From: Bacteroidota bacterium
Lineage (GTDB): Bacteria; Bacteroidota; Bacteroidia; Chitinophagales; CAIODY01
Assembly (NCBI GenBank): GCA_046051225.1
Contig: JBJOOR010000006.1
Coordinates: forward strand, 64,161-128,160
Reading direction: 5' to 3'
Length of the DNA stretch: 64,000 nt
A program made the position numbers and the translations under genes. Shown in pieces: positions 4,237 through 54,178 of the stretch (the stretch's first letter is position 1; each line of letters opens with the position of its first letter). The notes below the pieces were generated by a model that saw only the letters and a program-made list of their open reading frames with translations, made no database searches and was not told the origin of the DNA.

Positions 4237-5136
4237 GTGATGGCAAAAAAACCAGCACCGAAAAAGAAAGCTCCGGTAAAACAAAGCAAACCAGCTCCTA
4301 AAAAAGTTGTAAAACCTGCTGCTAAAAAAGTAGTTAAGGCTGCAAAACCTGCTGCTAAAAAAACAGTGGCAAAAAAGGTTGCTTCTAAATCAGTGGCAAA
4401 AAAAGTATCTAAACCAATTGCAAAAGCAAAATCGGTAGCTAAAAAAGTTGCTACGAAGCCGATTGCAAAAAAGATTGTAAAGCCAACTGCAAAAAAAGCT
4501 ACCTCAAAACCAGTTGCAAAAAAGGTTGTAAAACCAGCACCGAAGCCGATTGCAAAAAAGGTAGAACCTAAAAAAGTTGAGAAAGTAAAAGTAAAAGCGG
4601 TTGTTTCTAAAAAAGAAACAAAAAATATGAGTAAAGCAAGTAAAGTGAAGGTAGAAAAACCATCAAAGCGTCAGGTTGATAATACGCCAATTCCTGAATT
4701 AAAACTGCCAATTATGCGAAAAGTTGGTCCTCAACCTATTAAGCGTTCAACCGTAGATTTAACAAGAACTAGATATCCAGATAGTGAATTGAATGAATTT
4801 AGAGATTTGATAAATGATAAAATGCAAAAATCGAAAGAAGAATTGCATTATATTCAAGAGCAAATTACTAAATCGTCTGAAAATTCTACAGCTGATACTG
4901 AAAATAGATTTGGTGGGATGGAAGATGGGGCTGGTACATTAGAACGTGAATATTTGAATCAAATGGCAACAAGATTGGGTACTTTTATTGGTCATTTAGA
5001 AAAAGCATTAATGCGAATTGATAATAAAACTTATGGCATTTGTCGTATTACGGGCAAATTAATATCAAAAGAAAGATTACGTGCTGTTCCTCATGCCACT
5101 TTAAGTTTAGAGGCTAAGGAATTAGAAAAAAGATAG
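4237..5136 (+). CDS. DksA/TraR-family protein with long Lys/Ala/Pro-rich histone-H1-like N-terminal repeat region
   Basis: The C-terminus, NKTYGICRITGKLISKERLRAVPHATLSLEAKE, matches the Bacteroidetes TraR/DksA tail found downstream of ileS. The N-terminal ~125 aa are KKxAKP / PIAKKVV repeats. GTG at 4237 is followed by ATG at 4240. Confidence 0.75.
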   Translation: MMAKKPAPKKKAPVKQSKPAPKKVVKPAAKKVVKAAKPAAKKTVAKKVASKSVAKKVSKPIAKAKSVAKKVATKPIAKKIVKPTAKKATSKPVAKKVVKPAPKPIAKKVEPKKVEKVKVKAVVSKKETKNMSKASKVKVEKPSKRQVDNTPIPELKLPIMRKVGPQPIKRSTVDLTRTRYPDSELNEFRDLINDKMQKSKEELHYIQEQITKSSENSTADTENRFGGMEDGAGTLEREYLNQMATRLGTFIGHLEKALMRIDNKTYGICRITGKLISKERLRAVPHATLSLEAKELEKR

Positions 5137-7199: not shown

Positions 7200-9107
7200 T
7201 TATTCTTTTATAAATTTAGTAGTAATTGTTTTTCCGTTGGTATAATTTAATGCTTTTATAACATAAATACCGGCTTCTAATTTTTCAATATCAATAGTAT
7301 TGCTGGTAGAATGATGATTGTTTTTTAGCATAAAAAATTCTCTACCCATTATATCATATATTTTTATTTCATCTACCGTTTCATTATTAGTTTGTAAAAC
7401 AATGGTATGGGTAGCAGGGTTTGGATACAATTTATAATCTTGTATTTGATTGGCTGCTACATCATTTATAAAAGTTCCTAAGGGCACACAGCTGCCAAAT
7501 AATGGGCGCATCATCAATGCACCATTGATGATAGACGGAAACCAACCCAAGCCCGTGTTTACATATAAATGTGTATGTGCATCATCGTTTACATCAAAGC
7601 CAATATTCAAATAATCAGCTTGCAATTGAGTAAACCCAATATAAAATTTGCCCGAAGGAAGTATCTGTACAGTATCTAAAGGATAGGTAGCCCAACCATT
7701 TGTACTATCTACATATATTGGTTTTAGGAATGTTTCTTTTTGAATTTGTACATCTAAAACGCCATTCGGAATATCAATTGAACTCCATACTTTTAAATCA
7801 AAAAGCTTCGAACTTACATCGGCATTCATGTGTGCAAAATGAATTTGAATGGCTTTTAAAGTATCTGAAGTATTTAAAGCAAACTCATAAGCCAATGCTG
7901 CATCATTGCCTAATACACCATACACTTTTTCGGCTGTACCATCATCATAGGCTAGGTAATTAGAAAATTTCAATAAATAGTTGAACGTATCATTTTGATT
8001 ATTTTCGCCATTAGGGGGCTTAAAACTAAATTTTTCTTTAACTATACTGTTTCTACAACCCACTTGTGTAAGCGTATCAGGAATTGTATAAATAGGGGTA
8101 TAGCTTGGTTGTGGGGCTACAAATGAGTTGGCGTTTACATTATTCGATAATGAATTATATTTTTTGATGGTATCGCCCGATATGCCATCATATACATTGC
8201 AACGATAATCTAAATTGCCACTCACATTCCAATTATTAAAAATTTCGCATTTAAAACTGCTTGCCATTTCAGCACTTTTATTAGGTTTAAACTGTTTAAA
8301 AGGCATCGAAAAATAATTCAATAATGGGTTGGTGGGTATATTCGAAAAAGAGAAATCGCTGGTAGCATCGTTATAAGTTCTCGATTTATTAAGTTTTACA
8401 TAATCAATGTTCCAATGGTCGTTATTACCACTAATGGTGGCTATGTTTCTAAATCTAAATTGAAATAACGAATCAAAAAAAAGCGAATCGGTAAGTGGTA
8501 AAATAATGTACGAAAAATAAGCAGGTAATGGGTCGGATGAAAAACCATCTACACTCCAAATTTTAATCCAAGTACTATTTTTGTTTTTAAATTCTAATAC
8601 CAATGAATCGCCAATATCTGGGTAATCGCCATGCCCTTCGGGTTGATAAAAAAAACTAAAAAACACTGAATCTTTTGGAAATAAATTAAACAAATTTATA
8701 TGTTGCGATGATATTGTATCGGCACCGCCAAATGCAAATGGTACATAAGTATAGGCTTTGCCACTATCTGCCAATCCATCTAATGTAATACAGCCATAAG
8801 ATGGCGGATTGATAGGGTAATCATTGTTTACCAAAGCACCCGAATTTATCCAAAGCGAATCATTAGGATTCATATCTTTTGTAGAGAATGGATAATTTTT
8901 GCTTTGAATAAAATCATCAAAAAATGGAAGCTTTAATGGCTTTTTATACGTTGATTTTGCTTTGCTTTTTTGTGTAGATGATACAGTATTGTTTTTTATC
9001 CATCTACTGCCTTTTGCTTGTGCATCGTTGTTCAATATTTCTTGAGCAAACAGATGATGGCTAAGCAAAAATGAAAAAACAAATAAGAAGAATACAAAAG
9101 TTTTCAA
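7200..9107 (-). CDS. secreted protein with T9SS C-terminal sorting domain
   Basis: Signal peptide. C-terminus KLYPNPATHTIVLQT...GIYVIKAL...KFIKE is a Por/T9SS CTD. Confidence 0.75.
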   Translation of the reverse strand: MKTFVFFLFVFSFLLSHHLFAQEILNNDAQAKGSRWIKNNTVSSTQKSKAKSTYKKPLKLPFFDDFIQSKNYPFSTKDMNPNDSLWINSGALVNNDYPINPPSYGCITLDGLADSGKAYTYVPFAFGGADTISSQHINLFNLFPKDSVFFSFFYQPEGHGDYPDIGDSLVLEFKNKNSTWIKIWSVDGFSSDPLPAYFSYIILPLTDSLFFDSLFQFRFRNIATISGNNDHWNIDYVKLNKSRTYNDATSDFSFSNIPTNPLLNYFSMPFKQFKPNKSAEMASSFKCEIFNNWNVSGNLDYRCNVYDGISGDTIKKYNSLSNNVNANSFVAPQPSYTPIYTIPDTLTQVGCRNSIVKEKFSFKPPNGENNQNDTFNYLLKFSNYLAYDDGTAEKVYGVLGNDAALAYEFALNTSDTLKAIQIHFAHMNADVSSKLFDLKVWSSIDIPNGVLDVQIQKETFLKPIYVDSTNGWATYPLDTVQILPSGKFYIGFTQLQADYLNIGFDVNDDAHTHLYVNTGLGWFPSIINGALMMRPLFGSCVPLGTFINDVAANQIQDYKLYPNPATHTIVLQTNNETVDEIKIYDIMGREFFMLKNNHHSTSNTIDIEKLEAGIYVIKALNYTNGKTITTKFIKE

Positions 9108-9122
9108 AGCGTTATTAAAGTT

Positions 9123-9971
9123 TTATTGCACATCAATGGTTGAACCTTCGCCAGTTTTAATATGAGTATGCAAACTATCTAATCGTATTTTATCCGAATT
9201 TAAAGTAAGCCATATATCAATACTTTGCCCCATGTGTATCATCACTGGATTATCTAATTCATCATATACATCGGGCGACTGACGATAGATAAACGCCGAA
9301 GTAGAATCATTTATTGCATCATTATCATAAATAACTGAACCTATCGAAATATGATTTTCATTTAAAATAATTTTTGCTTCTTCTAACGACATGCCAGATA
9401 GGCTTGGCACAGGCATTTCTTCCGAGCCTAAGCCATTGGCTACTATTAAATTTACATAGCTTCCTTTTCGCAATTTCGTACCTGCATCTATTTGCTGTCC
9501 ATTTAATTCGGCATACAACACAGCATTGCTAGCATAATCGGGCTTGTAGATTACTTTACCAAAATTTAATCCATTTGTTTTTAAAATCATCATTGCTTGG
9601 CGCAATGATGCATCTTTTACATTTGGCATTTTAATATAGGGTGGCGAAAATACTTGAATAGAAACATAAATTTTTCTGCCAGGTTTTACTGGTGTGCCCG
9701 ATTTGGGGTCTTGTTCTAATATCATTCCTGGCTTTGTGCCCAATACAAATGTGCTATCCATTATTTCTACATCTAAGCCTCGTTCATCTAATAATGCACG
9801 GGCTTTGTTTAGCTGCAAGCCTTTTATCATGGGCACATTTATAGCTTTGCCATGTTGGGTAAGCCATCCCAAACTAACCAACAGAAACCAAATCAAAACA
9901 AAACTTATTACCATAGCTATTGCTATTTGATACCACAAGTATTTTGATTTTATGAAATGAAATAAATTCAC
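9123..9971 (-). CDS. PASTA domain-containing membrane protein
   Basis: N-terminal TM helix followed by three repeats of the PASTA pattern (VPxxxGxxxxxAxxxLxxxGL...). Confidence 0.8.
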   Translation of the reverse strand: MNLFHFIKSKYLWYQIAIAMVISFVLIWFLLVSLGWLTQHGKAINVPMIKGLQLNKARALLDERGLDVEIMDSTFVLGTKPGMILEQDPKSGTPVKPGRKIYVSIQVFSPPYIKMPNVKDASLRQAMMILKTNGLNFGKVIYKPDYASNAVLYAELNGQQIDAGTKLRKGSYVNLIVANGLGSEEMPVPSLSGMSLEEAKIILNENHISIGSVIYDNDAINDSTSAFIYRQSPDVYDELDNPVMIHMGQSIDIWLTLNSDKIRLDSLHTHIKTGEGSTIDVQ

Positions 9972-10138: not shown

Positions 10139-11227
10139 TTAAAAAATATCGCAAGGCGCTTTTCTGTTGATTACCTTTTTTTGAGGCTTGCCTGTGGTGT
10201 ACAATACGCCTAATTCGGGGCCACCACGATAATTGCTTACACTTTTTAAGCCCGAAAAGTTTAAATCGTAGCAAAGCCCAACTCTTGTATTTTTATATCT
10301 TATACCAATTGAGGGCATTATACCATCAAAGTTTTTATTGCCAGCCGATACCCTGCCTTGTGCACCAAAAAACAATAAAGCATCTTCGTATTTATAAGCC
10401 AATACTGCGCCTATATTAAATTCTTGCCCTTGCGATTGTGTTTGAAATTGTAATAACGGACGAATAGTTAATTTTGGATTAACAATATAATCGGCAGCTA
10501 CATACAGGTTATATCTTGTACCTAAACGTTGCTTAGGCCCCAAATACAAAAATGTTTCGGTAGGCGATATTAAGTGATTAAATGCTAAGCCGCCATAGCC
10601 TTTCCAACGTGGATTATTAAAATTGTGTTGATAGGCTATCCCTATATTCATATCGGGATAAATTAAAGTAGATTTATTAAAGTTTTCTTTTGAAGATAGG
10701 CTTGGATCGAATGAATTGGTAGCATAATTATATTGATTATTTACCAATACTTTGCTATAATCAATTCGTTTTTGTGTGAAGCCCAATTGTGCACCAAAGC
10801 TTAATTTATCGCCGTATGGAAGCATAATATGATAAGCCCCCGAAAGCAATACCGATAGATTTACCAACCTGCCCACACCCGATTCATCATAATACATTTG
10901 CACACCACCGCCCCAAAAATTATGCTGTTCGCCCGATGATGGCTTGGTATCTATATCATATTTAGTGGGGCGAAAGTTGTGGTCGTATGCCATACCAATG
11001 GTTCTAAATGGTTCGTTGGATACTTTATACCATTGGCTTCTATACACACCCGAAATTCTATCTACTTCGCTAAAATTGCCTGTTAAAGCAGGGTTTTGTA
11101 ATACAGGTGTTAAATAATATTGCGAAAAATGAATATCCTGTGCCTTTAATTGAAAGGATACAATCAATAATAAGATGGTATATATTTTCTTCACAGTTTT
11201 TATTTTTAATAAATTTAAGTGATGCAA
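10139..11227 (-). CDS. PorP/SprF-family type IX secretion system membrane protein
   Basis: AQDIHFSQYYLTPVLQNPALTG is the hallmark N-terminal motif of PorP/SprF. The true start may lie a few codons inside, at a GTG near 11194. Confidence 0.85.
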   Translation of the reverse strand: MHHLNLLKIKTVKKIYTILLLIVSFQLKAQDIHFSQYYLTPVLQNPALTGNFSEVDRISGVYRSQWYKVSNEPFRTIGMAYDHNFRPTKYDIDTKPSSGEQHNFWGGGVQMYYDESGVGRLVNLSVLLSGAYHIMLPYGDKLSFGAQLGFTQKRIDYSKVLVNNQYNYATNSFDPSLSSKENFNKSTLIYPDMNIGIAYQHNFNNPRWKGYGGLAFNHLISPTETFLYLGPKQRLGTRYNLYVAADYIVNPKLTIRPLLQFQTQSQGQEFNIGAVLAYKYEDALLFFGAQGRVSAGNKNFDGIMPSIGIRYKNTRVGLCYDLNFSGLKSVSNYRGGPELGVLYTTGKPQKKVINRKAPCDIF

Positions 11228-11238
11228 ATATAAATATT

Positions 11239-12072
11239 TTATTGTGGTTTAAAATAAAATTTATTGCCGTTGATAATACAATATGGTGGTTCGAATGGTG
11301 GAAAATAGGAGGCTCTTATGTACCGTTTTATTTTTTGTTTGCTCCAAGCCAAATCAATTTGCTTAATATCATTTATTTCATGGCGCAAATGAAAATTTTT
11401 CTTTCTTTTGGTAAATGAATTTTGTGGCAATAAAGTATAATTTCCTTTTATGATATTAGGCAAGGAAGTTTTAAAAAGGCGGATAGAACGATGTTCGGTT
11501 TCATCATACAAATCTTTTACAAAGCAATTTTCTGGTATCTTAAATCTATCTTCAAATACAATATCGCCATTATCAATACCCGATGCTAATTGATGAATAG
11601 TGGTGCCAAACTCTTTAGCTTTATCTATAATAGCAAATGAAAACTGATTGCACCCTCTATAATCGGGCAATGGAGCCATGTGTAGGTTTAAAGCTATTTG
11701 GCTGGCTTTATCTATATGCTGTTGTTGTAATATTTGATGATACTGCACCGAATAAATAATATCGCAATTAGGCATGGCATCAAGCGATGAAATTATTTTT
11801 ATTTTATTATGTTTGGCTAATTGCAGTACGCTTTGGTTTATATTCGGCTTTGCAATAGATTTTTTCGAAAAATGCTTGCTAGCCATCTCCATCTCATCTT
11901 TATTATCTTCAACAGCTAAGAATGGCATTTTTCGAAACCCTATATTATCATTACTTAATACACCAATTATTGTATAATTAAGCTTTTGTTGATTGGCAAT
12001 TAAATGTGCCAAACAATTATAACCAATGGGCTTTGAACCCATAAATATTATTTTTTTAGTTTCAGTTTTCAT
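11239..12072 (-). CDS. formyltransferase-family protein
   Basis: N-terminal IIFMGSKPIG nucleotide-binding start and NLHMAPLPDYRGCN (the HxSLLPxxRG-like formyl-transferase motif). Confidence 0.75.
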   Translation of the reverse strand: MKTETKKIIFMGSKPIGYNCLAHLIANQQKLNYTIIGVLSNDNIGFRKMPFLAVEDNKDEMEMASKHFSKKSIAKPNINQSVLQLAKHNKIKIISSLDAMPNCDIIYSVQYHQILQQQHIDKASQIALNLHMAPLPDYRGCNQFSFAIIDKAKEFGTTIHQLASGIDNGDIVFEDRFKIPENCFVKDLYDETEHRSIRLFKTSLPNIIKGNYTLLPQNSFTKRKKNFHLRHEINDIKQIDLAWSKQKIKRYIRASYFPPFEPPYCIINGNKFYFKPQ

Positions 12073-12123
12073 GGCTTTATTATTTCACAAATTTACAATT
12101 AAACTTTATAGTTTATTAATTAT

Positions 12124-12417
12124 ACTTCGTACTCAAGACTTTAAACTTCGTACTCAAGACTTTAAACTTCGTACTCAAGACATTATACTTCGTACTCAAG
12201 ACTTTAAACTTCGTACTCAAGACATTATACTTCGTACTCAAGACATTATACTTCGTATTCAAGACTTTATACTTCGTACTCAAGACTTTAAACTTCGTAC
12301 TCAAGACATTATACTTCTTACTCAAGACTTTATACTTCGTACTCAAGACTTTAAACTTCGTATTCAAGGCTTTAAACTTCTTACTCAAGACTCTAAACTT
12401 CTTGCCCAAGACTAAAA
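12124..12417 (+). repeat. 14 x 21-bp tandem repeat (consensus acttcgtactcaagactttaa) at the head of cassette array 1
   Basis: Counted directly. Units start at 12124, 12145, 12166 ... 12397. There are two main unit variants (..gactttaa and ..gacattat), and the last three units are degenerate. Confidence 0.95.
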
Positions 12418-13410: not shown

Positions 13411-13526
13411 GACAATTCGGGCAACGCCAACTTGTTGTGGTTTCTATTATCTTTGTGATGGCATACGAAACACAAAGCCGCCCATGCAGCAGAGGTTAGA
13501 AACGTTGGAATCATTTTTATAAAGAC
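13411..13526 (+). promoter_or_regulatory. cassette repeat copy R2
   Basis: gggcaacgccaacttgttgtggtttct-attatctttg(-7 box at 13448-13455)...gccgcccatgcagcagaggttagaaacgttgg. Aligns with the copies at 36.3 and 37.2 kb on the reverse strand. Confidence 0.6.
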
Positions 13527-14470: not shown

Positions 14471-14749
14471 AGAAAAAACAGCCCCAGACCATCGTAGTTT
14501 GTATTTGACAAGCGTATGTCTCCCGACTACGCTTTGGCGGAAAGCAATCTCTGATTGCAAAAACAAAATTATACAGTAGAAGCGAAGCTATGCTTTAGTT
14601 GTGTCGAAGTTCCACTTCGGCACTGCCTGATTCAAAATATTAATTGAACCAAGCAGCACCAAACCTGTCCCGAAGAAATCGGGAGCCCCTTCGCTCAAAA
14701 GCCATACTTCATCTTGGCGATAACATACAGTCGCTTTGCTGTTACGAGA

Positions 14750-14889
14750 CAATTTGAAAGTTCAGTTGTTTAGGCTATTTTTGTTTTCGTGTGACGGCAT
14801 ACGGAACATTAAGCCGCTAATGCAGAAAAGAATAAAAACTTTGGCGGCAATAAATCGGAACAACTTTGCAGACATCAAACAACGACAAA
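14750..14889 (+). promoter_or_regulatory. cassette repeat copy R3 (TTTG-N19-TAnnTTTG promoter plus leader)
   Basis: tttg at 14753-14756, a 19-nt spacer, tatttttg at 14776-14783, then cggc..gccg hairpin and ttggcggcaa at 14841-14850. Confidence 0.6.
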
Positions 14890-15330
14890 ATGAATAAATG
14901 GAAAATTGCTTTTTTGGTTTTCATAACAATTGCTGTTTTTTCGACAATATCTATTTTTGCTCAACAAACCAATAAAGCCGAATTAAGCAAATTAATTATT
15001 GGACAATGGATAAAAAAGATTGACAAAACCAAAGACGGCAAAGAATACTTTGGACTTAAATGCAAAGACACAATACAATATTTAATAAGTGGACAATATA
15101 TTTGGAAACAATGTGGAATTAACGAAACTGGAAACTGGAAAATATCGACAGACAATAAGAAGATTATTTTATACCAGCGAAAATGTAAATACTGGGGAAA
15201 ATATTTACAGACAAAAAACATAGGACAAATGGATATTCCAGTTGTTTCACTGACACAATCTCAACTGGTGACAATTATCTATGACGAAGAAAAGGGTGCA
15301 GTGAATCAGTTTTATAGCAGAACTCAATAA
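14890..15330 (+). CDS. hypothetical secreted protein (cassette gene)
   Basis: Start taken at ATG 14890 (MNKWKIAFLVFITIAVFSTISIFAQQ signal peptide), not the TTG at 14866 used by the ORF track. Confidence 0.6.
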   Translation: MNKWKIAFLVFITIAVFSTISIFAQQTNKAELSKLIIGQWIKKIDKTKDGKEYFGLKCKDTIQYLISGQYIWKQCGINETGNWKISTDNKKIILYQRKCKYWGKYLQTKNIGQMDIPVVSLTQSQLVTIIYDEEKGAVNQFYSRTQ

Positions 15331-15356
15331 AGCTTACACAACCCTGCTCCTTTAAA

Positions 15357-15584
15357 GCATAGCAAAGTGAATAGCCAACGAGGATGCAAAAGGTATTTAG
15401 TTTATAACTAATAAATAAAACTATTGCTACAGCAGTTTAACAAGCAATTTGAAAGTTTGGTTGTTTCTGCTACTTTTGTTTTCGTGTGGCATAGGTTAGA
15501 AACCTTGGGGCAAGCTTTGGGTACACTGCTAACATCAAACTAACTGCAAGAACCGAACAGACAAAACCAATGAGATACTTTTCA
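15357..15584 (+). repeat. cassette repeat copy R4 (228 nt, runs into the first 5 codons of the downstream gene)
   Basis: About 95% identical by eye to 16076-16304. tttg at 15448-15451, N19 spacer, tacttttg at 15471-15478. Ends in atgagatacttttca (MRYFS). Confidence 0.85.
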
Positions 15585-16037
15585 ATCATACTTATATTCA
15601 TCTTTAGTTTTTTAACTGCTTGCAACACTACACAAGTTTTGACACTTAAACACAAAAGATATTATTCGGAACGAAACATTTTAACCAGCGACACTACTCG
15701 TAAATTAATAGAAATGGTTTTCTATAACAAACCTCATATAATGGATGAAGAGTTTTTCTATAAGTTGACCTTTAAATTTATTGATACAACTGCTGCAAAA
15801 CAAAAGCGACTTATAAATTTAGTTGCAGACACTACAATTCTGAAGTGCTACTACTCAATCTTTTCCATTTGGAATTGGTCAGACGAACATTATACCATGA
15901 AAGGCGACATTGAAATAGTTGAATGGAAATACAACAGCATAACTCTCAAAGAAAATGTTTTTATAAACGACATCAGACGAAAAAAGAAATTGAAATTTAA
16001 AGGCAAACGAACATTTATAAAACACGAAGGTTGGTAA
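15570..16037 (+). CDS. hypothetical lipoprotein (cassette gene)
   Basis: MRYFSIILIFIFSFLTAC has a lipobox. 155 aa with no recognisable family. Confidence 0.6.
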   Translation: MRYFSIILIFIFSFLTACNTTQVLTLKHKRYYSERNILTSDTTRKLIEMVFYNKPHIMDEEFFYKLTFKFIDTTAAKQKRLINLVADTTILKCYYSIFSIWNWSDEHYTMKGDIEIVEWKYNSITLKENVFINDIRRKKKLKFKGKRTFIKHEGW

Positions 16038-16075
16038 CAAATATTTTACAACATTTCTGCTCGTCCTCGTTTGGG

Positions 16076-16304
16076 GCATAGCAAAGTGCATAGCCAACGA
16101 GGATGCAAGAGGTATTTAGTTTATAACTTATAAATAAAACTATTGCTACAGCGGCTTAACAAGCAATTTGAAAGTTCGGTTGTTTCTGCTACTTTTGTTT
16201 TCGTGTGGCAGAGGTTAGAAACTTTAGGGGCAAGCTTTGGGGACACTGCTAACATCAAACTAACTGCAAGAACCGAATAGACAAAACCAATGAGATACTT
16301 TTCA
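16076..16304 (+). repeat. cassette repeat copy R5 (229 nt)
   Basis: Near-identical to R4. A 10-bp hairpin (tcctcgtt.gg / ccaacgagga) lies around 16063-16105. The -7 box tacttttg is present. Ends in atgagatacttttca. Confidence 0.85.
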
Positions 16305-35349: not shown

Positions 35350-35357
35350 ATTTTTTC

Positions 35358-35390
35358 ACACCTGACAGGTTTTTAAAACCTGTCAGGTGT
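35358..35390 (+). terminator. 13-bp perfect hairpin immediately after gyrA
   Basis: acacctgacaggt-ttttaaa-acctgtcaggtgt. A second hairpin with a T run follows at 35399-35441. Confidence 0.7.
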
Positions 35391-35441
35391 AATACAAAAC
35401 CGCCCCGAAGTTCAAGATGAATTTTGGGGCGGTTTGTTTTT
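35371..35441 (+). repeat. direct repeat DR-L bounding cassette island 2
   Basis: ttttaaaacctgtcaggtgtaatacaaaaccgccccgaagttcaagatgaattttggggcggtttgttttt. Matches 38566-38637 with 4 substitutions and 1 indel. Confidence 0.9.
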
Positions 35442-35527
35442 GTTCTTCCGAGTTTGCAACTCGGAAAATATATTTGTTGATTTCAAATCAACAGTTAAAA
35501 ATACCGAGTTACAAACTCGACAGAACA

Positions 35528-36190
35528 TCAAGATTGACGGACTGTTGCGTTTCGCTTGTTCTCTTGATAAACTCTATACAAAATATAAATGCAAGCAGCG
35601 GTTATTAAAAATATTCCAAGTTGATTATGATATGCTGGATGGTCAGGTGGTTTTACTTTACCCAAAAAAGTTTTAACAATGAAGCTACTGATGTTGAGTA
35701 AATAAAGAATGATGACAGAATAGAGGAGCTTGTTTAGATATTTATATCTCCAAAGAATGACTGGAATTATTATAATAGATGCAAAAGTAATGACTCCATG
35801 AAGTGTTCCACCAATATCTATTGGTCCATCTAAACTAATTGATTCGCCATGACTTCTGAAACGAAGAATTACAAAAATTAAATGAATTAAATGATTGCAA
35901 GTAAACAAGGTTAGTAAAACCAAAAAAGATTCCTTTTTCTTTTCAGCACTATAAATCTTTTTCAAACCATTGTAACCAACCATTAGTAAAGTGATGAGCA
36001 TAATGAATGATGATATTCTGCCTGCTAAACGAGCACATTTGTCAAAAATAAATTCTCGTTGAATTGCAAAAAAATTATTCAAATCTAAAGTGCTTGTCCA
36101 AGTTGCCCACAAGTAAATTGATAATTCTATGCAACAAATAAGTGCAATCAAAAGTGGTAATCGTTTCTTCGTCAACATAAGTAATTTCAT
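35528..36190 (-). CDS. hypothetical polytopic membrane protein (cassette gene)
   Basis: 220 aa with about 6 hydrophobic helices. No recognisable family. Confidence 0.6.
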   Translation of the reverse strand: MKLLMLTKKRLPLLIALICCIELSIYLWATWTSTLDLNNFFAIQREFIFDKCARLAGRISSFIMLITLLMVGYNGLKKIYSAEKKKESFLVLLTLFTCNHLIHLIFVILRFRSHGESISLDGPIDIGGTLHGVITFASIIIIPVILWRYKYLNKLLYSVIILYLLNISSFIVKTFLGKVKPPDHPAYHNQLGIFLITAACIYILYRVYQENKRNATVRQS

Positions 36191-36403
36191 TTTATTAGGA
36201 TTGAAACGGATTTATGTAACTTTTATTTCTTGTAGTCAGTTTCAAGTTAGCACTGTCGCCACGGGTTGCCGCCAACGTTTCTGGGCTTTGCTGCATGGGC
36301 AGCTTGGTGTTTCCTATGCCGTCTGCCTGCACAAAGGTAATAGAAACCACAACAAGTTGGCGTTGCCCGTTAACCGCCAATGAAGCAAGCCCATGTTAGC
36401 GGT
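36191..36403 (-). repeat. cassette repeat copy R6
   Basis: On the minus strand: accgctaacatgggcttgcttcattggcggttaacgggcaacgccaacttgttgtggtttctat-tacctttg(-7 box, 36332-36339)...agaaacgttggcggcaa(36266-36275)...ATG at 36190. Confidence 0.85.
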
Positions 36404-37079
36404 AGTGCTTTTCTTGTCCGTGTAATGTCTGCAATAATTGTTTGTCAGCGTTTAATTGTTTTGAGTATGCTTTTTTTATGTCGTCAATTGTTATTTTTTT
36501 GTCCAAGTCAATTGCTAATTTGTCAATACTATTTCTGTCGGTGATGAATTTGTTTTTAGCACCGAAGTAGATGTCAAAAATATATTGCGGTGAATATTTT
36601 TGTTCCATACTTCCATAACCTCTGTAAAATTGTCCAAGCACAATGACGTCAGTGAAGCCGTCCGAATTGATGTCAGAAAACGAAACTGCTAAAATTTTTT
36701 CAAAGCAACAGTTTGGATAAGAAAAGTTTGGCGACCGATAGCAAACGCTGTCGTTGAGTTTTAAGTAAAAATTGAAATGACTCCATGATGAGTCTTTTAA
36801 ATTGAGATGTTCTGTGTAATAAAAAAAATAAGCTGAACCTTTTCCATTCAATGTCAAGTGAAATGTTTGCTCGTTAGGATTTTGTTTAGCACCTGTAAAT
36901 GTTGAATGTATGCTGTCCAACGAAACATATTCTGCGTCAGACAAAGGCTTTGGATTTGTCAATGTCATGATGCTGTTGTCTGGCAAACTGTCGAAAAGTT
37001 TTAACCTTTTCTTCGTTGTTTGTCCGAAGCAATTTGTCAAGACAAAAGTCAAAAGAAATATGGAAAATGCTTTGTTCAA
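36396..37079 (-). CDS. hypothetical secreted protein (cassette gene)
   Basis: Signal peptide MNKAFSIFLLTFVLTNCFGQ. The SDINSDGFTDVIVLGQ segment resembles an FG-GAP/calcium-binding loop. Its stop codon lies inside repeat R6. Confidence 0.6.
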   Translation of the reverse strand: MNKAFSIFLLTFVLTNCFGQTTKKRLKLFDSLPDNSIMTLTNPKPLSDAEYVSLDSIHSTFTGAKQNPNEQTFHLTLNGKGSAYFFYYTEHLNLKDSSWSHFNFYLKLNDSVCYRSPNFSYPNCCFEKILAVSFSDINSDGFTDVIVLGQFYRGYGSMEQKYSPQYIFDIYFGAKNKFITDRNSIDKLAIDLDKKITIDDIKKAYSKQLNADKQLLQTLHGQEKHYR

Positions 37080-37290
37080 ATTTGGATTATTTGAAGTCGT
37101 TTTGTCGTCATTGTTTTATTGTCAAAATGAAAATCTATTTCGTCTCAAAGCATTGCCGCCAAAGGTTTTGGGCTTTGCTGCATTGGCGGCTTGGTGTTCC
37201 GTCTGCCGTCTACCTGCACAAAGGTAGTAGAAACCACAACAAGTTGGCGTTGCCCGTCAACGGCCAATGAAGCAAGCCCATGTTAGCGGT
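37080..37290 (-). repeat. cassette repeat copy R7
   Basis: The 138-nt core at 37153-37290 aligns with 36266-36403 and is nearly identical in the promoter-upstream ~75 nt. The -7 box tacctttg is at 37219-37226 (minus strand). Confidence 0.85.
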
Positions 37291-37338
37291 TCGGTCGTCT
37301 TTTTTCTGTCGTTAGTTTTCTTGTCATTCAGTCTATTA

Positions 37339-38052
37339 CTAGTCTTTTAATTTTACTCCAAGTCTGTCAGCAAGTTCTTTTACATATTCTTTATGTCCGT
37401 TGCTTTCAATATTGTTGTAGTAGTCTTGTATTAATTTACGCCCTTTTTGTTTGTCGCTCTGTAGTATAATTAAAGCCACGTCCAATTTGGCTCTAACTGA
37501 AGAACCTTCTATAACTCCCCAATTTCTACAAATTTTGTCCCTGTTCTCAAAAGTTTCAAGCCATTGAAGTCCGTGTGAATTTAGTCCTTCAATAACTTCA
37601 ATTGCGGTCTTTTCATTGTCGTCTGAAATTGACCACCAAAGGTCTTGTTTAATTGTCAAATGAGTAAGTCGTGTTCTAATTTGGCAGTCATAGTCTTGAT
37701 AAATGTCTTTGGGTTTATTGTAGCTATCAAGTTCATAAATCTCTTTAACCATAACACCTAAGTTAACCGTAAACTTTCCATAATAATTTTCTCTAAATCC
37801 AGGAATTACATACTTGTCACCAAATTCATATCTGCCACTTTGAATATTTATTACTTGATAAATTCCGTCTTCTGTTTCTCTGTTAAATGTCCGTCCTTTT
37901 TTCTTAAATCCTAATGGTTTCAAGAAATGAAAAATTTCTTTTTGAATGTTGTCCAAATGAGTTTTAAGCTCGACCTTATTTGTCAAATTTTGGTTGTCTG
38001 ATTTTTCGTCAGCCATTTTTGGTTTGTCTTTTAAGAAGTCAAAAATTCCCAT
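37339..38052 (-). CDS. DUF4304-like protein (cassette gene)
   Basis: FLKPLGFKKKGRTFNRETEDGIYQVINIQ resembles the N-terminal signature I recall for DUF4304. Cytoplasmic, 237 aa. Confidence 0.6.
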   Translation of the reverse strand: MGIFDFLKDKPKMADEKSDNQNLTNKVELKTHLDNIQKEIFHFLKPLGFKKKGRTFNRETEDGIYQVINIQSGRYEFGDKYVIPGFRENYYGKFTVNLGVMVKEIYELDSYNKPKDIYQDYDCQIRTRLTHLTIKQDLWWSISDDNEKTAIEVIEGLNSHGLQWLETFENRDKICRNWGVIEGSSVRAKLDVALIILQSDKQKGRKLIQDYYNNIESNGHKEYVKELADRLGVKLKD

Positions 38053-38220
38053 TTGTCAACTGTTTTTTCTTTTGCTGTGTCGTCTTTTAGCCTGACCGCT
38101 AACTCGTTTATACTTGCAACTATTTCGCACTTATCCACCCATTTTCGGTTGGCTTCGTGCTACAAAGAAACACTTTATTAAATTCTCAAACAATACCAAT
38201 TGGTTTGTATGGTTGGGTGC

Positions 38221-38560
38221 TTATTTCAAAAGAGAAGGACTAATCTCAAAACTTAAGTCCGAATTTCTAAAGTAGCGTTCCTATTTCAATATTTGAGTCC
38301 TAATCTGAAAATGTGAGCTTTAATTTTCAAACATGAGTTCAGATTTCCAAAGAAGGATTCTTGTTTCCAAAAGAAGTGTCTTTATTTCCAAAGAAGCATA
38401 CTAATCTGAAATTGTGAGTTCAGATTTTCAAATTAAGGCTCTTATTTCCGAAGAAGTTTCTAAGTTTCAAAATCTGAGCACTAATCTTAAAAAGTGAGTC
38501 TTAATTTTCAAACATGAGTTCAGATTTCCAGATTAGAGTTCTAATTCCCAAAAGTATGTC
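38221..38560 (-). repeat. about 17 x 19-21-bp degenerate tandem repeat at the head of cassette island 2
   Basis: Units such as ttatttccaaagaagcatac, taatctgaaaatgtgagcttt and taattttcaaacatgagttc. A ~60-bp higher-order period is visible: 38301-38360, 38402-38460 and 38482-38541 are alike. Confidence 0.85.
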
Positions 38561-38565
38561 GTTGG

Positions 38566-38637
38566 TTTTAAAAACCTGTCAGGTGTAATACAGAAACGCC
38601 CCGAAGTTCATGATGAATTTCGGGGCGGTTTGTTTTT
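38566..38637 (+). repeat. direct repeat DR-R bounding cassette island 2
   Basis: ttttaaaaacctgtcaggtgtaatacagaaacgccccgaagttcatgatgaatttcggggcggtttgtttttt. Carries only the 3' half of the gyrA hairpin plus the second hairpin and T run. Confidence 0.9.
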
Positions 38638-38660
38638 TCTTTTTTCAATTTTAAACCAAC

Positions 38661-51041: not shown

Positions 51042-51067
51042 TATAATTGTTTTTTTAATTTATATTC

Positions 51068-52576
51068 TTATTTACTTACCATAACTTTTTCTGTTTTTAA
51101 AATTTTGTTATCGGCGTTTCTTAATTGAACAAAATATTCGCCCGAAGCCCAGTTTGAAGTTTCAACTACTTCGCTTCCGATTGTTGAATGAATAGATTTA
51201 TTCAACAATATTTTTCCATTCAAATCCATTACTGATAAATTATAACCTGCATTATTTTCAGCAACAAAATTTACTAAAAAATAATTTGAAGCAGGATTAG
51301 GAAATATTTTGATATACGAATTGTTACTCAAATCGTTTGTTGATAATGCTTTTGAAGTAATAAACGAATGGGTATTAGTATAAAAACTACTGCAAGTAGC
51401 AGCAGGATTAAATGCAACAACCAACCATTTATAAAATACAGATTCTTTCAAATTATCGTTTGCATAAATATTGGCTGTGGTATCCGAAGTTATTTTACTC
51501 CATACTTGGTTTGTATTGTTGCCTTGCTTATACACTGCTACACAATATTTTGTAGCACCAGCCACACTATGCCATTTAAAATTAATGAAATCGGCAGGCA
51601 AAGTTTCACCATTGGGTGTAATTAATCCTATAGTATCATTTATTTGAGTTGAATTTTGTGGCAGATTCAAATGCCAATTAAAATGAAATGTATCTAACGA
51701 GGCTTGCATGGCAGCTATTTGTTCTTTGCTGAACTTACTTAAACATATATCGTCAAAATTGCTCATATACAATGATGAATCAGTATTTAATGGAACACCG
51801 TTGGGGTCTTTATATCTGCAATGGTTAGATATACAACTTACCCTATCTATATTATAATCTGGTGGCGTATCGCAAAATTTATCTGCCACAGCATGGCAGT
51901 TGCTGCCATCCATTTTTTCTAATGTTTGCGGTACAATATAACCAGCTGATGGCTGATTCCAACAAGAACTATCATATACTTGAATATTTTGAAAAGTATG
52001 CGGCAAACTAAAATAATGACCTATATCATGTGTAAGTACAGTTGAATTTTTACCGCCACAAGCGCCAATCAGTACTACCACATCTCGTGTTGGCGAATAA
52101 TATCCACAAAGCCCTGGAGAACCATTAACAAAAAAAATATTTATAGCATTTAAAGTAAAATGCTTACTGCTTTGCATAATAGAATCTGCCATAGGATTAG
52201 TTTCTGAAGCATCATTATAAAACAAAGTATTGTTTATATAATCAATATCCTGATATAGAAAAAAATGGAAATTGATTGAATCTCTGGTAAAACGCATATT
52301 CAAATCGCATATATCATCAAATAATTTTTGAAGTGGGTAATAGCCCGTATGATCATCATTCCCTACAATATGAGCTTTGATAGGAATATAAATAGTAGTG
52401 TTTTTCTTTTTTCTGTATTGTGGCAATCCATCATTGCGTTGGTATGCATCAAGCCAATCTGCTTGTGTTTTACTTAATTCGGTGTTGCATCGGCTAGGTC
52501 TTTCGGTAGTTTGAGCATTTGCATTGTTGCTAAACAATAGAATAATGAAAACTAAAAAAATGAAATTATTTTTCAT
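51068..52576 (-). CDS. M43 (pappalysin/cytophagalysin)-like protein with T9SS CTD; zinc motif reads HDIGH
   Basis: VLTHDIGHYFSLPHTF (codons cat gat ata ggt cat checked on the DNA), a signal peptide, and the C-terminal IFPNP... CTD. Confidence 0.8.
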   Translation of the reverse strand: MKNNFIFLVFIILLFSNNANAQTTERPSRCNTELSKTQADWLDAYQRNDGLPQYRKKKNTTIYIPIKAHIVGNDDHTGYYPLQKLFDDICDLNMRFTRDSINFHFFLYQDIDYINNTLFYNDASETNPMADSIMQSSKHFTLNAINIFFVNGSPGLCGYYSPTRDVVVLIGACGGKNSTVLTHDIGHYFSLPHTFQNIQVYDSSCWNQPSAGYIVPQTLEKMDGSNCHAVADKFCDTPPDYNIDRVSCISNHCRYKDPNGVPLNTDSSLYMSNFDDICLSKFSKEQIAAMQASLDTFHFNWHLNLPQNSTQINDTIGLITPNGETLPADFINFKWHSVAGATKYCVAVYKQGNNTNQVWSKITSDTTANIYANDNLKESVFYKWLVVAFNPAATCSSFYTNTHSFITSKALSTNDLSNNSYIKIFPNPASNYFLVNFVAENNAGYNLSVMDLNGKILLNKSIHSTIGSEVVETSNWASGEYFVQLRNADNKILKTEKVMVSK

Positions 52577-52599
52577 GATAAATTATTTTATGATGAATT

Positions 52600-52648
52600 A
52601 AAAAGCCCTGTACAAATATGGTGGTTTATACAGGGCTATATTTTTTTT
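52600..52648. terminator. hairpin terminator between the two protease paralogs
   Basis: agccctgta ... tacagggct flanked by A and T runs. Confidence 0.65.
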
Positions 52649-52663
52649 GAAAATCTATTTTTA

Positions 52664-54178
52664 TTATTTACTTACCATAACTTTTTCTGTTTTTAAAATT
52701 TTGTTATCGGCGTTTCTTAATTGAACAAAATATTCGCCCGAAGCCCAGTTTGAAGTTTCAACTACTTCTGTTCTGCCATTAGCAGCAATTTGTTTGTTAT
52801 AAACTTGTTTGCCCGAAATATCAAATACCGTAAGTGTATAATTTCCAACAGTTGTTTCAGAAATATAATTTACAATAAAATAATTATTTACAGGGTTAGG
52901 ATAAATTTTGAAAGATGAAACAGAAGAAATAGTATTAATACCTGTAGCAGCCGAAGGAGAGAATTGAACAGCTGCGCCAAAAGTACCACATGGTTTACCA
53001 GGATTATATGCCATTACTTTAATATTATACAATACATTTTCAACCAAATTTGCATTAGCATAAAATGCAGCAAAAGTATCAGTAGTCATTACACTCCAAA
53101 CTTGGTTTGTAGCATTACCTTGCTTATAAATAGCCACACAATATTTGGTAGCACCAGGTACAGATGTCCAACTACATGTAACAAAATCGGCAGGTGGTGT
53201 ATCAATTGTATTAGGTGTTATTAAAGTAGGCGTACCTGTAACGGCATTAAAGTTTTGAGCAAGATTTAATAAATAACCAGCACGAACTGTATTATAATTA
53301 GCTTGCATAGCGCCTCGTTGCTCATGGCTAAAACGAGTAACACAAATATCATCAGCATAACTCATGTATAAAGAACTGTCTGGTCTAACAACTACGCCAT
53401 TTGGGTCTTTTCTTAGTGTGCAGATAAATGGGCATGCCCATCTATCAGGATTGTAATCGGCTTTTGTATCACAAAATTTATCGCCAGCTACATAGCAATT
53501 GCTACGATCTACTTTTTCTGGATTTGTTGGTTTCGACATACCTGTTTTTACAATGGTATCACAGTTAGCATCCCATACACCTTCCCAGCCATTAAAAGTA
53601 TGAGGTAAGCTAAAATAATGTCCTACTTCATGAGCAACTGTGGTTGCATTATGACCACCACAAGCGCCAATAATAACTACTACATCTAATCCTGGAGAGA
53701 AATAGCCGCATAAGCCTGGCGATGCAGAAACGAAGAACATATTTAAAGCACCCGAACGATGGTGTAAAGAGCTATTCATGATAGAATTTGCCATTGGGTT
53801 AGTTTGCGAACCATCATTATAAAATGAAGTATTATTAATGTAATCAATATCTTCATATAAAAAGAAATGGATACCAATAGAATCTCTATCGTAACGCATG
53901 TTTAATTCGCATACATCGGCAAATAATTTTTGTAAATCATAATACCCCGAACCATCATCTTTTCCTACTATATGCGCCTTAATAGGCACATATACAGAAT
54001 AAGTGTTTTTTTTGCGATACACTTCCGAAGCATCATTACGTTGGTATTCATCTAACCAATCTAATTGGGCTTTACTTAGTTTAGTGCCACACCAATTTGA
54101 TGGTTTCGCATCTTGTGCATTTACTTTTGCAAAGCAAAGCATCATTAAGAGTAGATAAGTAAAAGTTTTTTTAATCAT
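52664..54178 (-). CDS. M43-like zinc metalloprotease with T9SS CTD
   Basis: VAHEVGHYFSLPHTF (HExxH). Start taken at ATG 54178 (MIKKTFTYLLLMMLCFAKVNAQ signal peptide) rather than the track start at 54262. Confidence 0.8.
   Translation of the reverse strand: MIKKTFTYLLLMMLCFAKVNAQDAKPSNWCGTKLSKAQLDWLDEYQRNDASEVYRKKNTYSVYVPIKAHIVGKDDGSGYYDLQKLFADVCELNMRYDRDSIGIHFFLYEDIDYINNTSFYNDGSQTNPMANSIMNSSLHHRSGALNMFFVSASPGLCGYFSPGLDVVVIIGACGGHNATTVAHEVGHYFSLPHTFNGWEGVWDANCDTIVKTGMSKPTNPEKVDRSNCYVAGDKFCDTKADYNPDRWACPFICTLRKDPNGVVVRPDSSLYMSYADDICVTRFSHEQRGAMQANYNTVRAGYLLNLAQNFNAVTGTPTLITPNTIDTPPADFVTCSWTSVPGATKYCVAIYKQGNATNQVWSVMTTDTFAAFYANANLVENVLYNIKVMAYNPGKPCGTFGAAVQFSPSAATGINTISSVSSFKIYPNPVNNYFIVNYISETTVGNYTLTVFDISGKQVYNKQIAANGRTEVVETSNWASGEYFVQLRNADNKILKTEKVMVSK

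Follow-up and report, generated by a model that had tools for sequence, protein, structure and literature searches.

A decayed 20-bp minisatellite heads an integron-like cassette island and belongs to a recurrent class of tandem arrays in Chitinophagales-like Bacteroidota platforms

Results

Organization of the cassette islands

The window, that is, the whole 64-kb stretch of DNA analysed here, carries two cassette islands, the features of which are listed in Table 1. Its contig comes from JGI metagenome 3300047563. Island 2 (approximately 35446-38563) contains three co-oriented minus-strand genes, between which lie 149-nt repeats that are 89% identical. Read along the minus strand, it is composed of a bracketing direct repeat, a tandem array of 17 x 20 bp, a promoter-like box and a hairpin, an attI-like motif, and three cassettes with attC-like spacers. 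Island 1 (12.1-16.7 kb, plus strand) contains seven small genes and repeats related to those of island 2. Pfam searches on the cassettes yielded DUF4304, DUF805 and otherwise weak matches only, with no recognised immunity family among them.

The inter-cassette repeats open with ..CCGCTAAC.. and close with ..GTTGGCGGCAA, and these attC-like leaders fold end-to-end into long imperfect palindromes that have two stems, one outer and one inner (folding z-scores from -2.35 to -0.28). An Rfam search of the 64-kb window gave no match. The leader families of a related locus, L023, are unrelated in sequence and retain the AAC...GTT palindromic plan. The motif TAnnTTTG, which we take to be the Bacteroidetes -7 promoter consensus known from Bacteroides promoters, is found in the inter-cassette repeats at 13448, 14776, 15471, 16190, 36332 and 37219; each attC-like repeat has a box of its own (13411-13526, 14700-14865, 15331-15569, 16038-16289, 36263-36405 and 37150-37292). 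To judge from the sequence, each cassette here may be self-expressed, unlike the promoter-less cassettes of classical integrons.

Table 1. Features of the two islands in the window and of the related arrays in other loci
Feature	Position	Strand	Basis or remark
Sister array heading island 1, 14 units of 21 bp TTAAACTTCGTACTCAAGACT and one degenerate edge unit	12099..12413	+	90% matches
Bracketing direct repeat, left copy, gyrA terminator region	35368..35460	+	85% identical to right copy
Third and last cassette gene, 220-aa membrane protein	35528..36190	-	gene call
Second attC-like site	36263..36405	-	89% identical to first
Second cassette gene, 227 aa, signal-peptide-like N-terminus	36396..37079	-	gene call
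First attC-like imperfect palindrome, outer stem CCGCTAAC / TTGGCGG, internal putative promoter box TACCTTTG	37150..37292	-	
First cassette gene, DUF4304, 237 aa	37339..38052	-	gene call, Pfam
attI-like motif GTATAAACGAGTTAGCGGTCA	38093..38113	-	95% identical over 21 nt to L022 (E = 1e-4)
Imperfect hairpin of the head leader	38127..38160	-	position equals that of the GGGTAAGCC...GGCTTACCC hairpin of L005/L028
Imperfect Bacteroidetes-type -7 box TTTCTTTG	38163..38170	-	aligned with the box after the integrase stop in L005
Transition between array and head leader	38181..38220	.	one weak unit-like 20-mer (38181-38200), then unique sequence
Tandem array, 17 units of 19-21 bp	38221..38560	.	unit parse, self-match, internal ~9-unit (181-bp) duplication
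Bracketing direct repeat, right copy, terminator hairpin 38597-38627	38564..38656	+	adjoins last repeat unit
L005/L022 (CANFST010000076.1), at least 18 x 21 bp, unit types TGTTAAACCAACCACGACCGA and TTGCGACTTACATTTGACCAA			contig starts within array
L023, L026, L027, L028 (four other samples), 21-bp array, strictly alternating CCAGCTAACTGTAACTTTTTA / CCAGCTTGCTGGAAATCTCTG			contigs start within array
L016, degenerate 21-bp tract	9046-9297 and 9382-9466 of the locus		periodicity 0.44 vs locus median 0.315 (sd 0.026)

We found no integrase, recombinase or remnant of one in the 64-kb window, and hence no integron integrase adjacent to either island; related loci show C-terminal fragments only. The best NCBIfam match of these recombinase fragments is TIGR02249 ("integron integrase"), with an alignment that reaches the last profile position; their 89-93 bits against a cut-off of 265 bits are the low score of fragments and do not establish membership in the family. 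The rAID-1 hallmark of at least two co-directional short genes with repetitive intergenic motifs is present in island 1 (seven genes) and in island 2 (three genes). Our results indicate that island 2 is a degraded integron-like array of the rAID/CALIN type.

A scan of representative genomes with the leader pattern recovered one true relative, L005, in a Chitinophagales MAG; pattern scans of metagenome contigs (one pattern being partly mis-specified) and of viral contigs gave zero matches. Searching for the integrase fragment returned proteins of 74 aa or less only and no intact integrase-bearing Chitinophagales platform, a result that we suspect to be due in part to a coverage bias of the search.

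The tract upstream of the cassettes is a decayed minisatellite

The preliminary description had divided 38221-38560 into about 17 consecutive units of 19-21 bp, and this division was borne out. The 17 units have the plus-strand consensus TAATTTCnAAAnnTGAGTyC, and the self-match of the tract at lag 20 is 0.559, when the best self-match over lags 15-29 in 2000 shuffles had a mean of 0.329 and a maximum of 0.381. The units stand head-to-tail with a constant period above chance, as in a minisatellite, and have a mean pairwise identity of 0.58. Because they are so diverged, TRF at its default stringency reports 38343-38396 alone. The tract had been given as 38181-38560, of which 38221-38560 holds; the remaining 40 bp contain at most one unit-like 20-mer and otherwise belong to the unique head leader. 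As had also been stated, the tract is devoid of ORFs: none of 54 aa or more overlaps it and none spans it. Within the 64-kb window, periodicity of 20-21 bp is found at two places only, 12099-12413 and 38221-38560. This shows that the tract of island 2 is a decayed 20-bp minisatellite.

A higher-order period of about 60 bp had been proposed too, and we did not recover it: units three apart are 0.575 identical, against a mean of 0.581. The long-range signal lies instead at lag 181 (0.667) and at a unit offset of 9 (0.681), and is one internal duplication of about nine units. Column conservation is over-dispersed in comparison with uniform decay, with a core ATTTc..AAA..G.GT.C (P = 0/5000 for all units and 0.002-0.05 for subsets), an effect that is possibly in part an artefact, as the conserved columns are mostly A/T in a genome of 33% GC and the phasing of units was chosen to align them. 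Four assemblies of the locus, compared for strain polymorphism, are 100% identical.

The array is the terminal feature of an inserted island

Island 2 is bracketed by a direct repeat of 78-93 nt that duplicates the gyrA terminator region. Directly past the gyrA stop, at 35357-35390, lies a perfect 13-8-13 inverted repeat, CACACCTGACAGG-TTTTTAAA-ACCTGTCAGGTGT, with the shape of a lox/dif-type core. Its far-end copy (38564-38586) comprises the spacer and the right arm only, so that the bracketing duplication around the 3.1-kb island has its start within the spacer, as would be expected for a site-specific insertion. The array runs directly into the bracketing repeat and is hence the terminal feature of the inserted island. 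No direct repeats were found flanking island 1.

At the other end of island 2, the tail (35446-35522) contains two similar hairpins, TTCCGAGTTTGCAACTCGGAA and TACCGAGTTACAAACTCGACA, on either side of the palindrome TTGATTTCAAATCAA. PWM scans for inverted copies of the units gave no top matches at the island tails.

The array stands on the integrase side of an attI-like head

In several related loci the 3' end of a recombinase gene is followed by a promoter-like box, a hairpin, the motif ATAAAYnAGTTA and the first cassette (L005/L022, L017, L021, L029/L030 and L034; L017 is Algoriphagus iocasae). ATAAAYnAGTTA lies at a constant distance past the integrase stop in L005, L017, L021, L029/L030 and L034, and its copy in island 2 is the attI-like motif of Table 1, of which L017, L021, L029/L030 and L034 have related forms. 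The counterpart of the box at 38163-38170 is a perfect TAnnTTTG, TACTTTTG, in L005 and merely an offset TATCTTTTG in L017. In island 2 the array starts about 50 bp upstream of this box, and the attI-like motif lies 110-130 bp downstream of the array. By alignment with these loci, the array of island 2 is on the integrase side of a putative attI head, at the place that the integrase gene takes elsewhere.

A sister array heads island 1

The tract of island 2 had been described as placed like the 21-bp repeat at 12.1 kb, and both arrays indeed stand at the upstream end, in gene orientation, of their cassettes. No significant alignment could be obtained between the units of islands 1 and 2, in agreement with the earlier failure to align the two consensus sequences. 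The two arrays thus share an architecture and not a sequence, as first proposed, each being a 20-21-bp head made of unrelated units, and the same arrangement recurs in three more arrays from other metagenomes. The co-occurrence of repeat heads with cassettes was to be considered coincidental if other cassette arrays of the genome had no repeat head; both islands of the window have one. A translation of the island 1 array used as a protein query retrieved no true homologue.

The outer edge of the island 1 array is about 27 bp from the ATG of a divergent flanking gene. The degenerate edge (12078-12098) overlaps a TAAATTTG box on the minus strand (12088-12095), just upstream of a divergent formyltransferase-like gene (11239-12072). 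The promoter of this flanking housekeeping gene may lie inside the edge of the array.

Arrays of the same period recur in other loci

To look for similar tracts next to other copies of the cassette repeat had been suggested as a check, and the outcome was divided. Tracts are present in L005/L022, L016 and L023/L026-L028, and five related platforms (L015, L017, L018, L021 and L029) have no tandem head, L029 having only a two-copy 21-bp repeat at the head position. In all, a head of 20-21 bp period is found at the same position in five independent arrays, those of island 1, island 2, L022, L016 and the L028 type. What follows the array differs from case to case: about 40 codons of a recombinase 3' end, the attI-like head and three cassettes in L005/L022; an attI region 98% identical to that of L022 over 60 nt and then a 13-kb cassette array in L023/L026-L028; and about 0.5 kb of unique sequence, a gene for a TPR protein and then an attC-like site in L016. 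The L016 array begins just past the terminator of the upstream gene, and in each of the three cases that can be resolved (islands 1 and 2 and L016) no other feature of the island lies farther out than the array. We conclude that the array of island 2 is a member of a recurrent class of 20-22-bp tandem arrays, found in Chitinophagales-like Bacteroidota platforms at the place of a lost integrase gene.

L022 and L028 have unrelated repeat units next to attI regions that are 98% identical over 60 nt, so that these arrays are not in-situ descendants that diverged by point mutation. Judging from these contigs, the segment upstream of attI is exchangeable, its period and position being conserved. In L034 the position is a different one: tandem units of 22/44 bp fill an ORF-less cassette, which lies between the attI-like motif and an attC-like site belonging to that cassette. 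This repeat cassette occurs twice, 5 kb apart (10270-10770 and 15240-15700), with the same 5' flank and differing copy number. The integrase beside it is devoid of its N-terminal part, and IS elements interrupt the array.

Three of the arrays are homogeneous and so long that short-read contigs end in them. Five independent samples (L022, L023, L026, L027 and L028) yielded contigs that begin within 21-bp head arrays. Head repeats systematically interrupt assembly at this end of the islands and can conceal upstream content, possibly an integrase.

In many genomes (Algoriphagus, Pedobacter, Flavobacterium, Cyclobacteriaceae and Chlorobaculum), the last 40-74 codons of the integrase family stand alone, with variable breakpoints (proteins P0053-P0172; loci L017, L018, L021 and L029), and in L021 a gene for a large serine recombinase adjoins the integrase fragment. 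The integrase 3' end and the head downstream of it appear to be preferentially kept, in a search that may favour short proteins.

Readings of the array that were set aside

A unit motif shared across arrays was not recovered: PFM comparisons were mostly non-significant, and scans of consensus sequences against arrays reached p<=0.02 in 4 of about 80, which is not robust. A 10-mer, TAAACTTCGT, is common to island 1 and L016 and is suggestive only. We also rejected an origin of the units in attI-like or attC-like boxes or in the lox-like hairpin of gyrA (13+7/8 = 20/21 bp), as local alignments did not exceed those of column-shuffled units. A structured RNA is not supported by folding (z = +0.26 and -1.59 for island 2, +3.06 for island 1), and an Rfam search of the island 2 tract gave nothing, even at E<=1. 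A C-rich tract for Rho loading was rejected on the sense-strand C/G ratio, which is 0.96 in island 2 versus 1.5-2.6 in the other four arrays. An array of promoters was discarded too, the tract having a single TAnnTTTG match and the motif not being enriched in the window; in fact TAnnTTTG is below its chance frequency in these 64 kb, and the single match is therefore uninformative. In island 2, a coding heptad repeat is ruled out by the 20-bp period and the stop codons. We set aside an iteron or partition centromere, since there is no rep or par gene in either island and the units differ between arrays, and also arm-type sites of the integrase, since the units are unlike attI-like and attC-like sequences and identical attI regions are accompanied by unrelated units. 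Predicted intrinsic curvature, computed with a script of our own from wedge parameters, was weak and depended on the model: it placed the island 2 array at about the 1st-2nd percentile in one wedge model and was unremarkable in two others.

Discussion

What the tract is, where it lies and that it recurs are matters of observation, from which we infer its function. The array does not appear to act as an RNA, an ORF, an array of promoters or an integrase core site. The reading that we favour, tentatively and with less than even confidence, is that it may serve the integrase/attI end of the island as an architectural or boundary module, tolerant of sequence and constrained in phase. One unit would correspond to two turns of the helix, and every unit would then show the same helix face. 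Units on the same face could be cooperatively coated or bent by a protein that reads spacing or shape and not a fixed motif, and the role of the element would be to organise the attI/promoter end of the island or to insulate it. This is consistent with a periodicity that is far above chance and confined, in 64 kb, to two cassette heads, with a period of 20-21 bp that is constant across five arrays with unrelated units, and with a recurrent position. That the period is stable when units are unrelated, even next to attI regions that are 98% identical, points to a constraint on the period. The retention of a decayed, non-coding tract of 340 bp and the uneven conservation of columns in island 2 go in the same direction. 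As islands 1 and 2 are in one genome and their units cannot be aligned, a single sequence-specific binder is excluded. Against an architectural module, no binding protein has been identified and no candidate gene travels with the arrays; the heavy decay of the island 2 and L016 arrays is what a tract without function would show; five related platforms do without an array; the curvature is weak; and no intact integrase-bearing example was recovered.

Some of these points would equally suit a neutral minisatellite, produced by slippage or unequal crossing-over in dead DNA after decay of the integrase, functionless and linked to the head by descent only. Units are unrelated between arrays, the arrays of island 2 (58% unit identity) and L016 are decaying, five related platforms have none, integrase decay with varying breakpoints is common at these heads, and the two-copy repeat of L029 may be a proto-array. 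We nevertheless regard this explanation, the main rival, as somewhat doubtful. Independent origins should not all yield 20-21 bp, and common descent cannot account for unrelated units beside a 98%-identical attI. Neutral tracts of 300-470 bp are usually lost fast in bacteria, yet decayed ones persist here, with certain columns of the unit far better preserved than others. Taken together, the constant period across unrelated units and the contrast between L022 and L028 argue against a purely accidental by-product.

An architectural role could be extended to the whole class. On this broader proposal, which we consider rather unlikely as formulated, the phase-locked 20-22-bp arrays would be an unrecognised exchangeable module of Bacteroidota integron-like, rAID-type platforms, selected for its two-turn period and serving as a nucleoprotein scaffold or insulator that controls cassette expression or recombination competence. 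The module would form a terminal head beside attI, on the integrase side, and ORF-less cassettes in L034.

That the array represents an ORF-less repeat cassette or other exchangeable module captured by the platform, or a derivative of one, and is thus a mobile tandem-repeat element and not a fixed part of the head, seems to us unlikely. The 22/44-bp array of L034 does stand between an attI-like motif and its own attC-like site, with a second copy 5 kb downstream, and the upstream segments of L022 and L028 have been swapped beside an identical attI. In the window, L022, L028 and L016, on the other hand, the array is upstream of the attI-like motif and not between attI and attC, and the window arrays have no flanking attC-like boxes. 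Furthermore, the flanks of the L034 cassette have no significant similarity to the window heads, and the similarity of its units to those of island 2 is weak (p ~0.013 before correction for about 80 tests).

The preliminary description had named as candidate roles a nucleoprotein or silencing platform for acquired DNA and a recombination landing pad, and the position of the array would suit the latter. An array of accessory (arm-type) sites for the integrase, comparable to DR1/DR2 of attI1 or to Xis/Cox filaments beside att cores, would explain why direct repeats stand on the integrase side of the attI-like site and why the island 2 array directly adjoins the putative island junction. However, the attI-like site is a separate conserved motif well downstream of the array, units have no similarity to attI-like or attC-like sequences, and L022 and L028 combine an identical attI with unrelated units. 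There are no unit-like sites at the island tails by PWM and no integrase in the window, and 14 to 18 sites are far above any known arm. The landing-pad or integrase-binding reading of the island 2 array is thereby weakened, and we find it improbable. Least credible of all is a transcribed element, either a non-coding RNA or, upstream of the cassettes, an insulator of unstructured, C-rich sequence that loads Rho (rut): a TACTTTTG box faces the cassettes from the outermost unit (38549-38556), a terminator lies past the array on the plus strand, C exceeds G on the sense strand in four of the five arrays and the island 1 RNA is unusually unstructured, but the C/G ratio, folding and Rfam results of island 2 and the lone, uninformative TAnnTTTG match speak against it.

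Relation to known systems

To our knowledge, direct repeats at an attI have been described for attI1 only, namely the two short repeats DR1 and DR2 that bind IntI, and we know of no 300-bp minisatellite at such a site. Repeats of comparable length are found in plasmid iterons and repeat centromeres, which are cooperatively coated with protein: the 22-bp iterons of R6K, the 20-bp repeats of pSK41 parC and the 12 x 43 bp of F sopC. By analogy, the phased direct repeats of about 20-22 bp, or the 42-44-bp doublets in L022, L028 and L034, may be likened to them; here, however, the arrays are chromosomal, have no rep or par gene nearby and lack a conserved unit motif. Bacterial VNTRs or minisatellites share with our arrays the head-to-tail units, degeneration at the edges, internal segmental duplication and copies that are homogeneous in certain lineages, but the present arrays are bound to one structural position in a mobile platform, with a period conserved across unrelated units.

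Among gene-capture platforms, the architecture agrees with that published for the rAID-1 (recombinase-associated acquired interbacterial defence) clusters, in which a co-oriented XerD-like recombinase lies upstream of short genes that run in one direction, the repeats between genes are integron-like, and a motif follows just 3' of the stop codon of the recombinase (bioRxiv 10.1101/471110, PMC12247911). The definition of rAID-1 requires the 5' XerD-like tyrosine recombinase to be at least 44% identical to BF9343_RS08045 (bioRxiv 10.1101/471110). L005, L017, L021, L029 and L034 have exactly this type of head. In contrast to rAID-1, which is known from gut Bacteroidales, the arrays of the window have no recombinase, their host is Chitinophagales-like and environmental, and no recognised immunity family is found among the cassettes. 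The words "tandem" and "repeat" are absent from the main text of the rAID-1 preprint (bioRxiv 10.1101/471110), and a keyword search of the literature, limited in extent and in part to excerpts, yielded nothing relevant on such repeat arrays. The architecture also agrees with that of degraded integrons, or CALINs, which are clusters of attC sites without an integron integrase (PMC9024848). With integrons and CALINs, the islands and their related loci share imperfect ..AAC/GTT.. palindromes between cassettes, an attI-like site by the integrase 3' end, frequent decay of the integrase and TIGR02249 fragments; they differ in that sites here are about 140-150 nt long and have promoter-like boxes of their own. 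Integrons are reported as rare in Bacteroidetes and attI regions beyond class 1 integrons as poorly described (PMC9024848), and PMC12247911 gives the biogenesis of rAID clusters as unknown.

Integron-like and rAID cassette arrays are the way in which many Bacteroidota stockpile accessory and defence genes. The tandem array seems to be a recurring component of such platforms that has not been described before. If the architectural reading is true, a repeat module of constrained period at their integrase/attI end would add a new component to their structure, with regulation, insulation and mobility as candidate roles. In practice, arrays that end short-read contigs at island heads can make complete platforms look integrase-less in metagenome-assembled genomes.

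Other repeats in the window

Two further repeated structures were noted outside the islands. At 51065-54070, two adjacent segment copies about 1.6 kb apart are 73-80% identical (repeat families D3, D4, D7 and D10) and are probably tandem paralogous genes. At 4237-5136, a 299-aa protein has a long N-terminal repeat region rich in lysine, alanine and proline (AKKxxKP units), and the repeats reported by TRF at 4288-4597 are inside its coding sequence; by appearance only, its C-terminal part resembles a DksA/TraR zinc finger.
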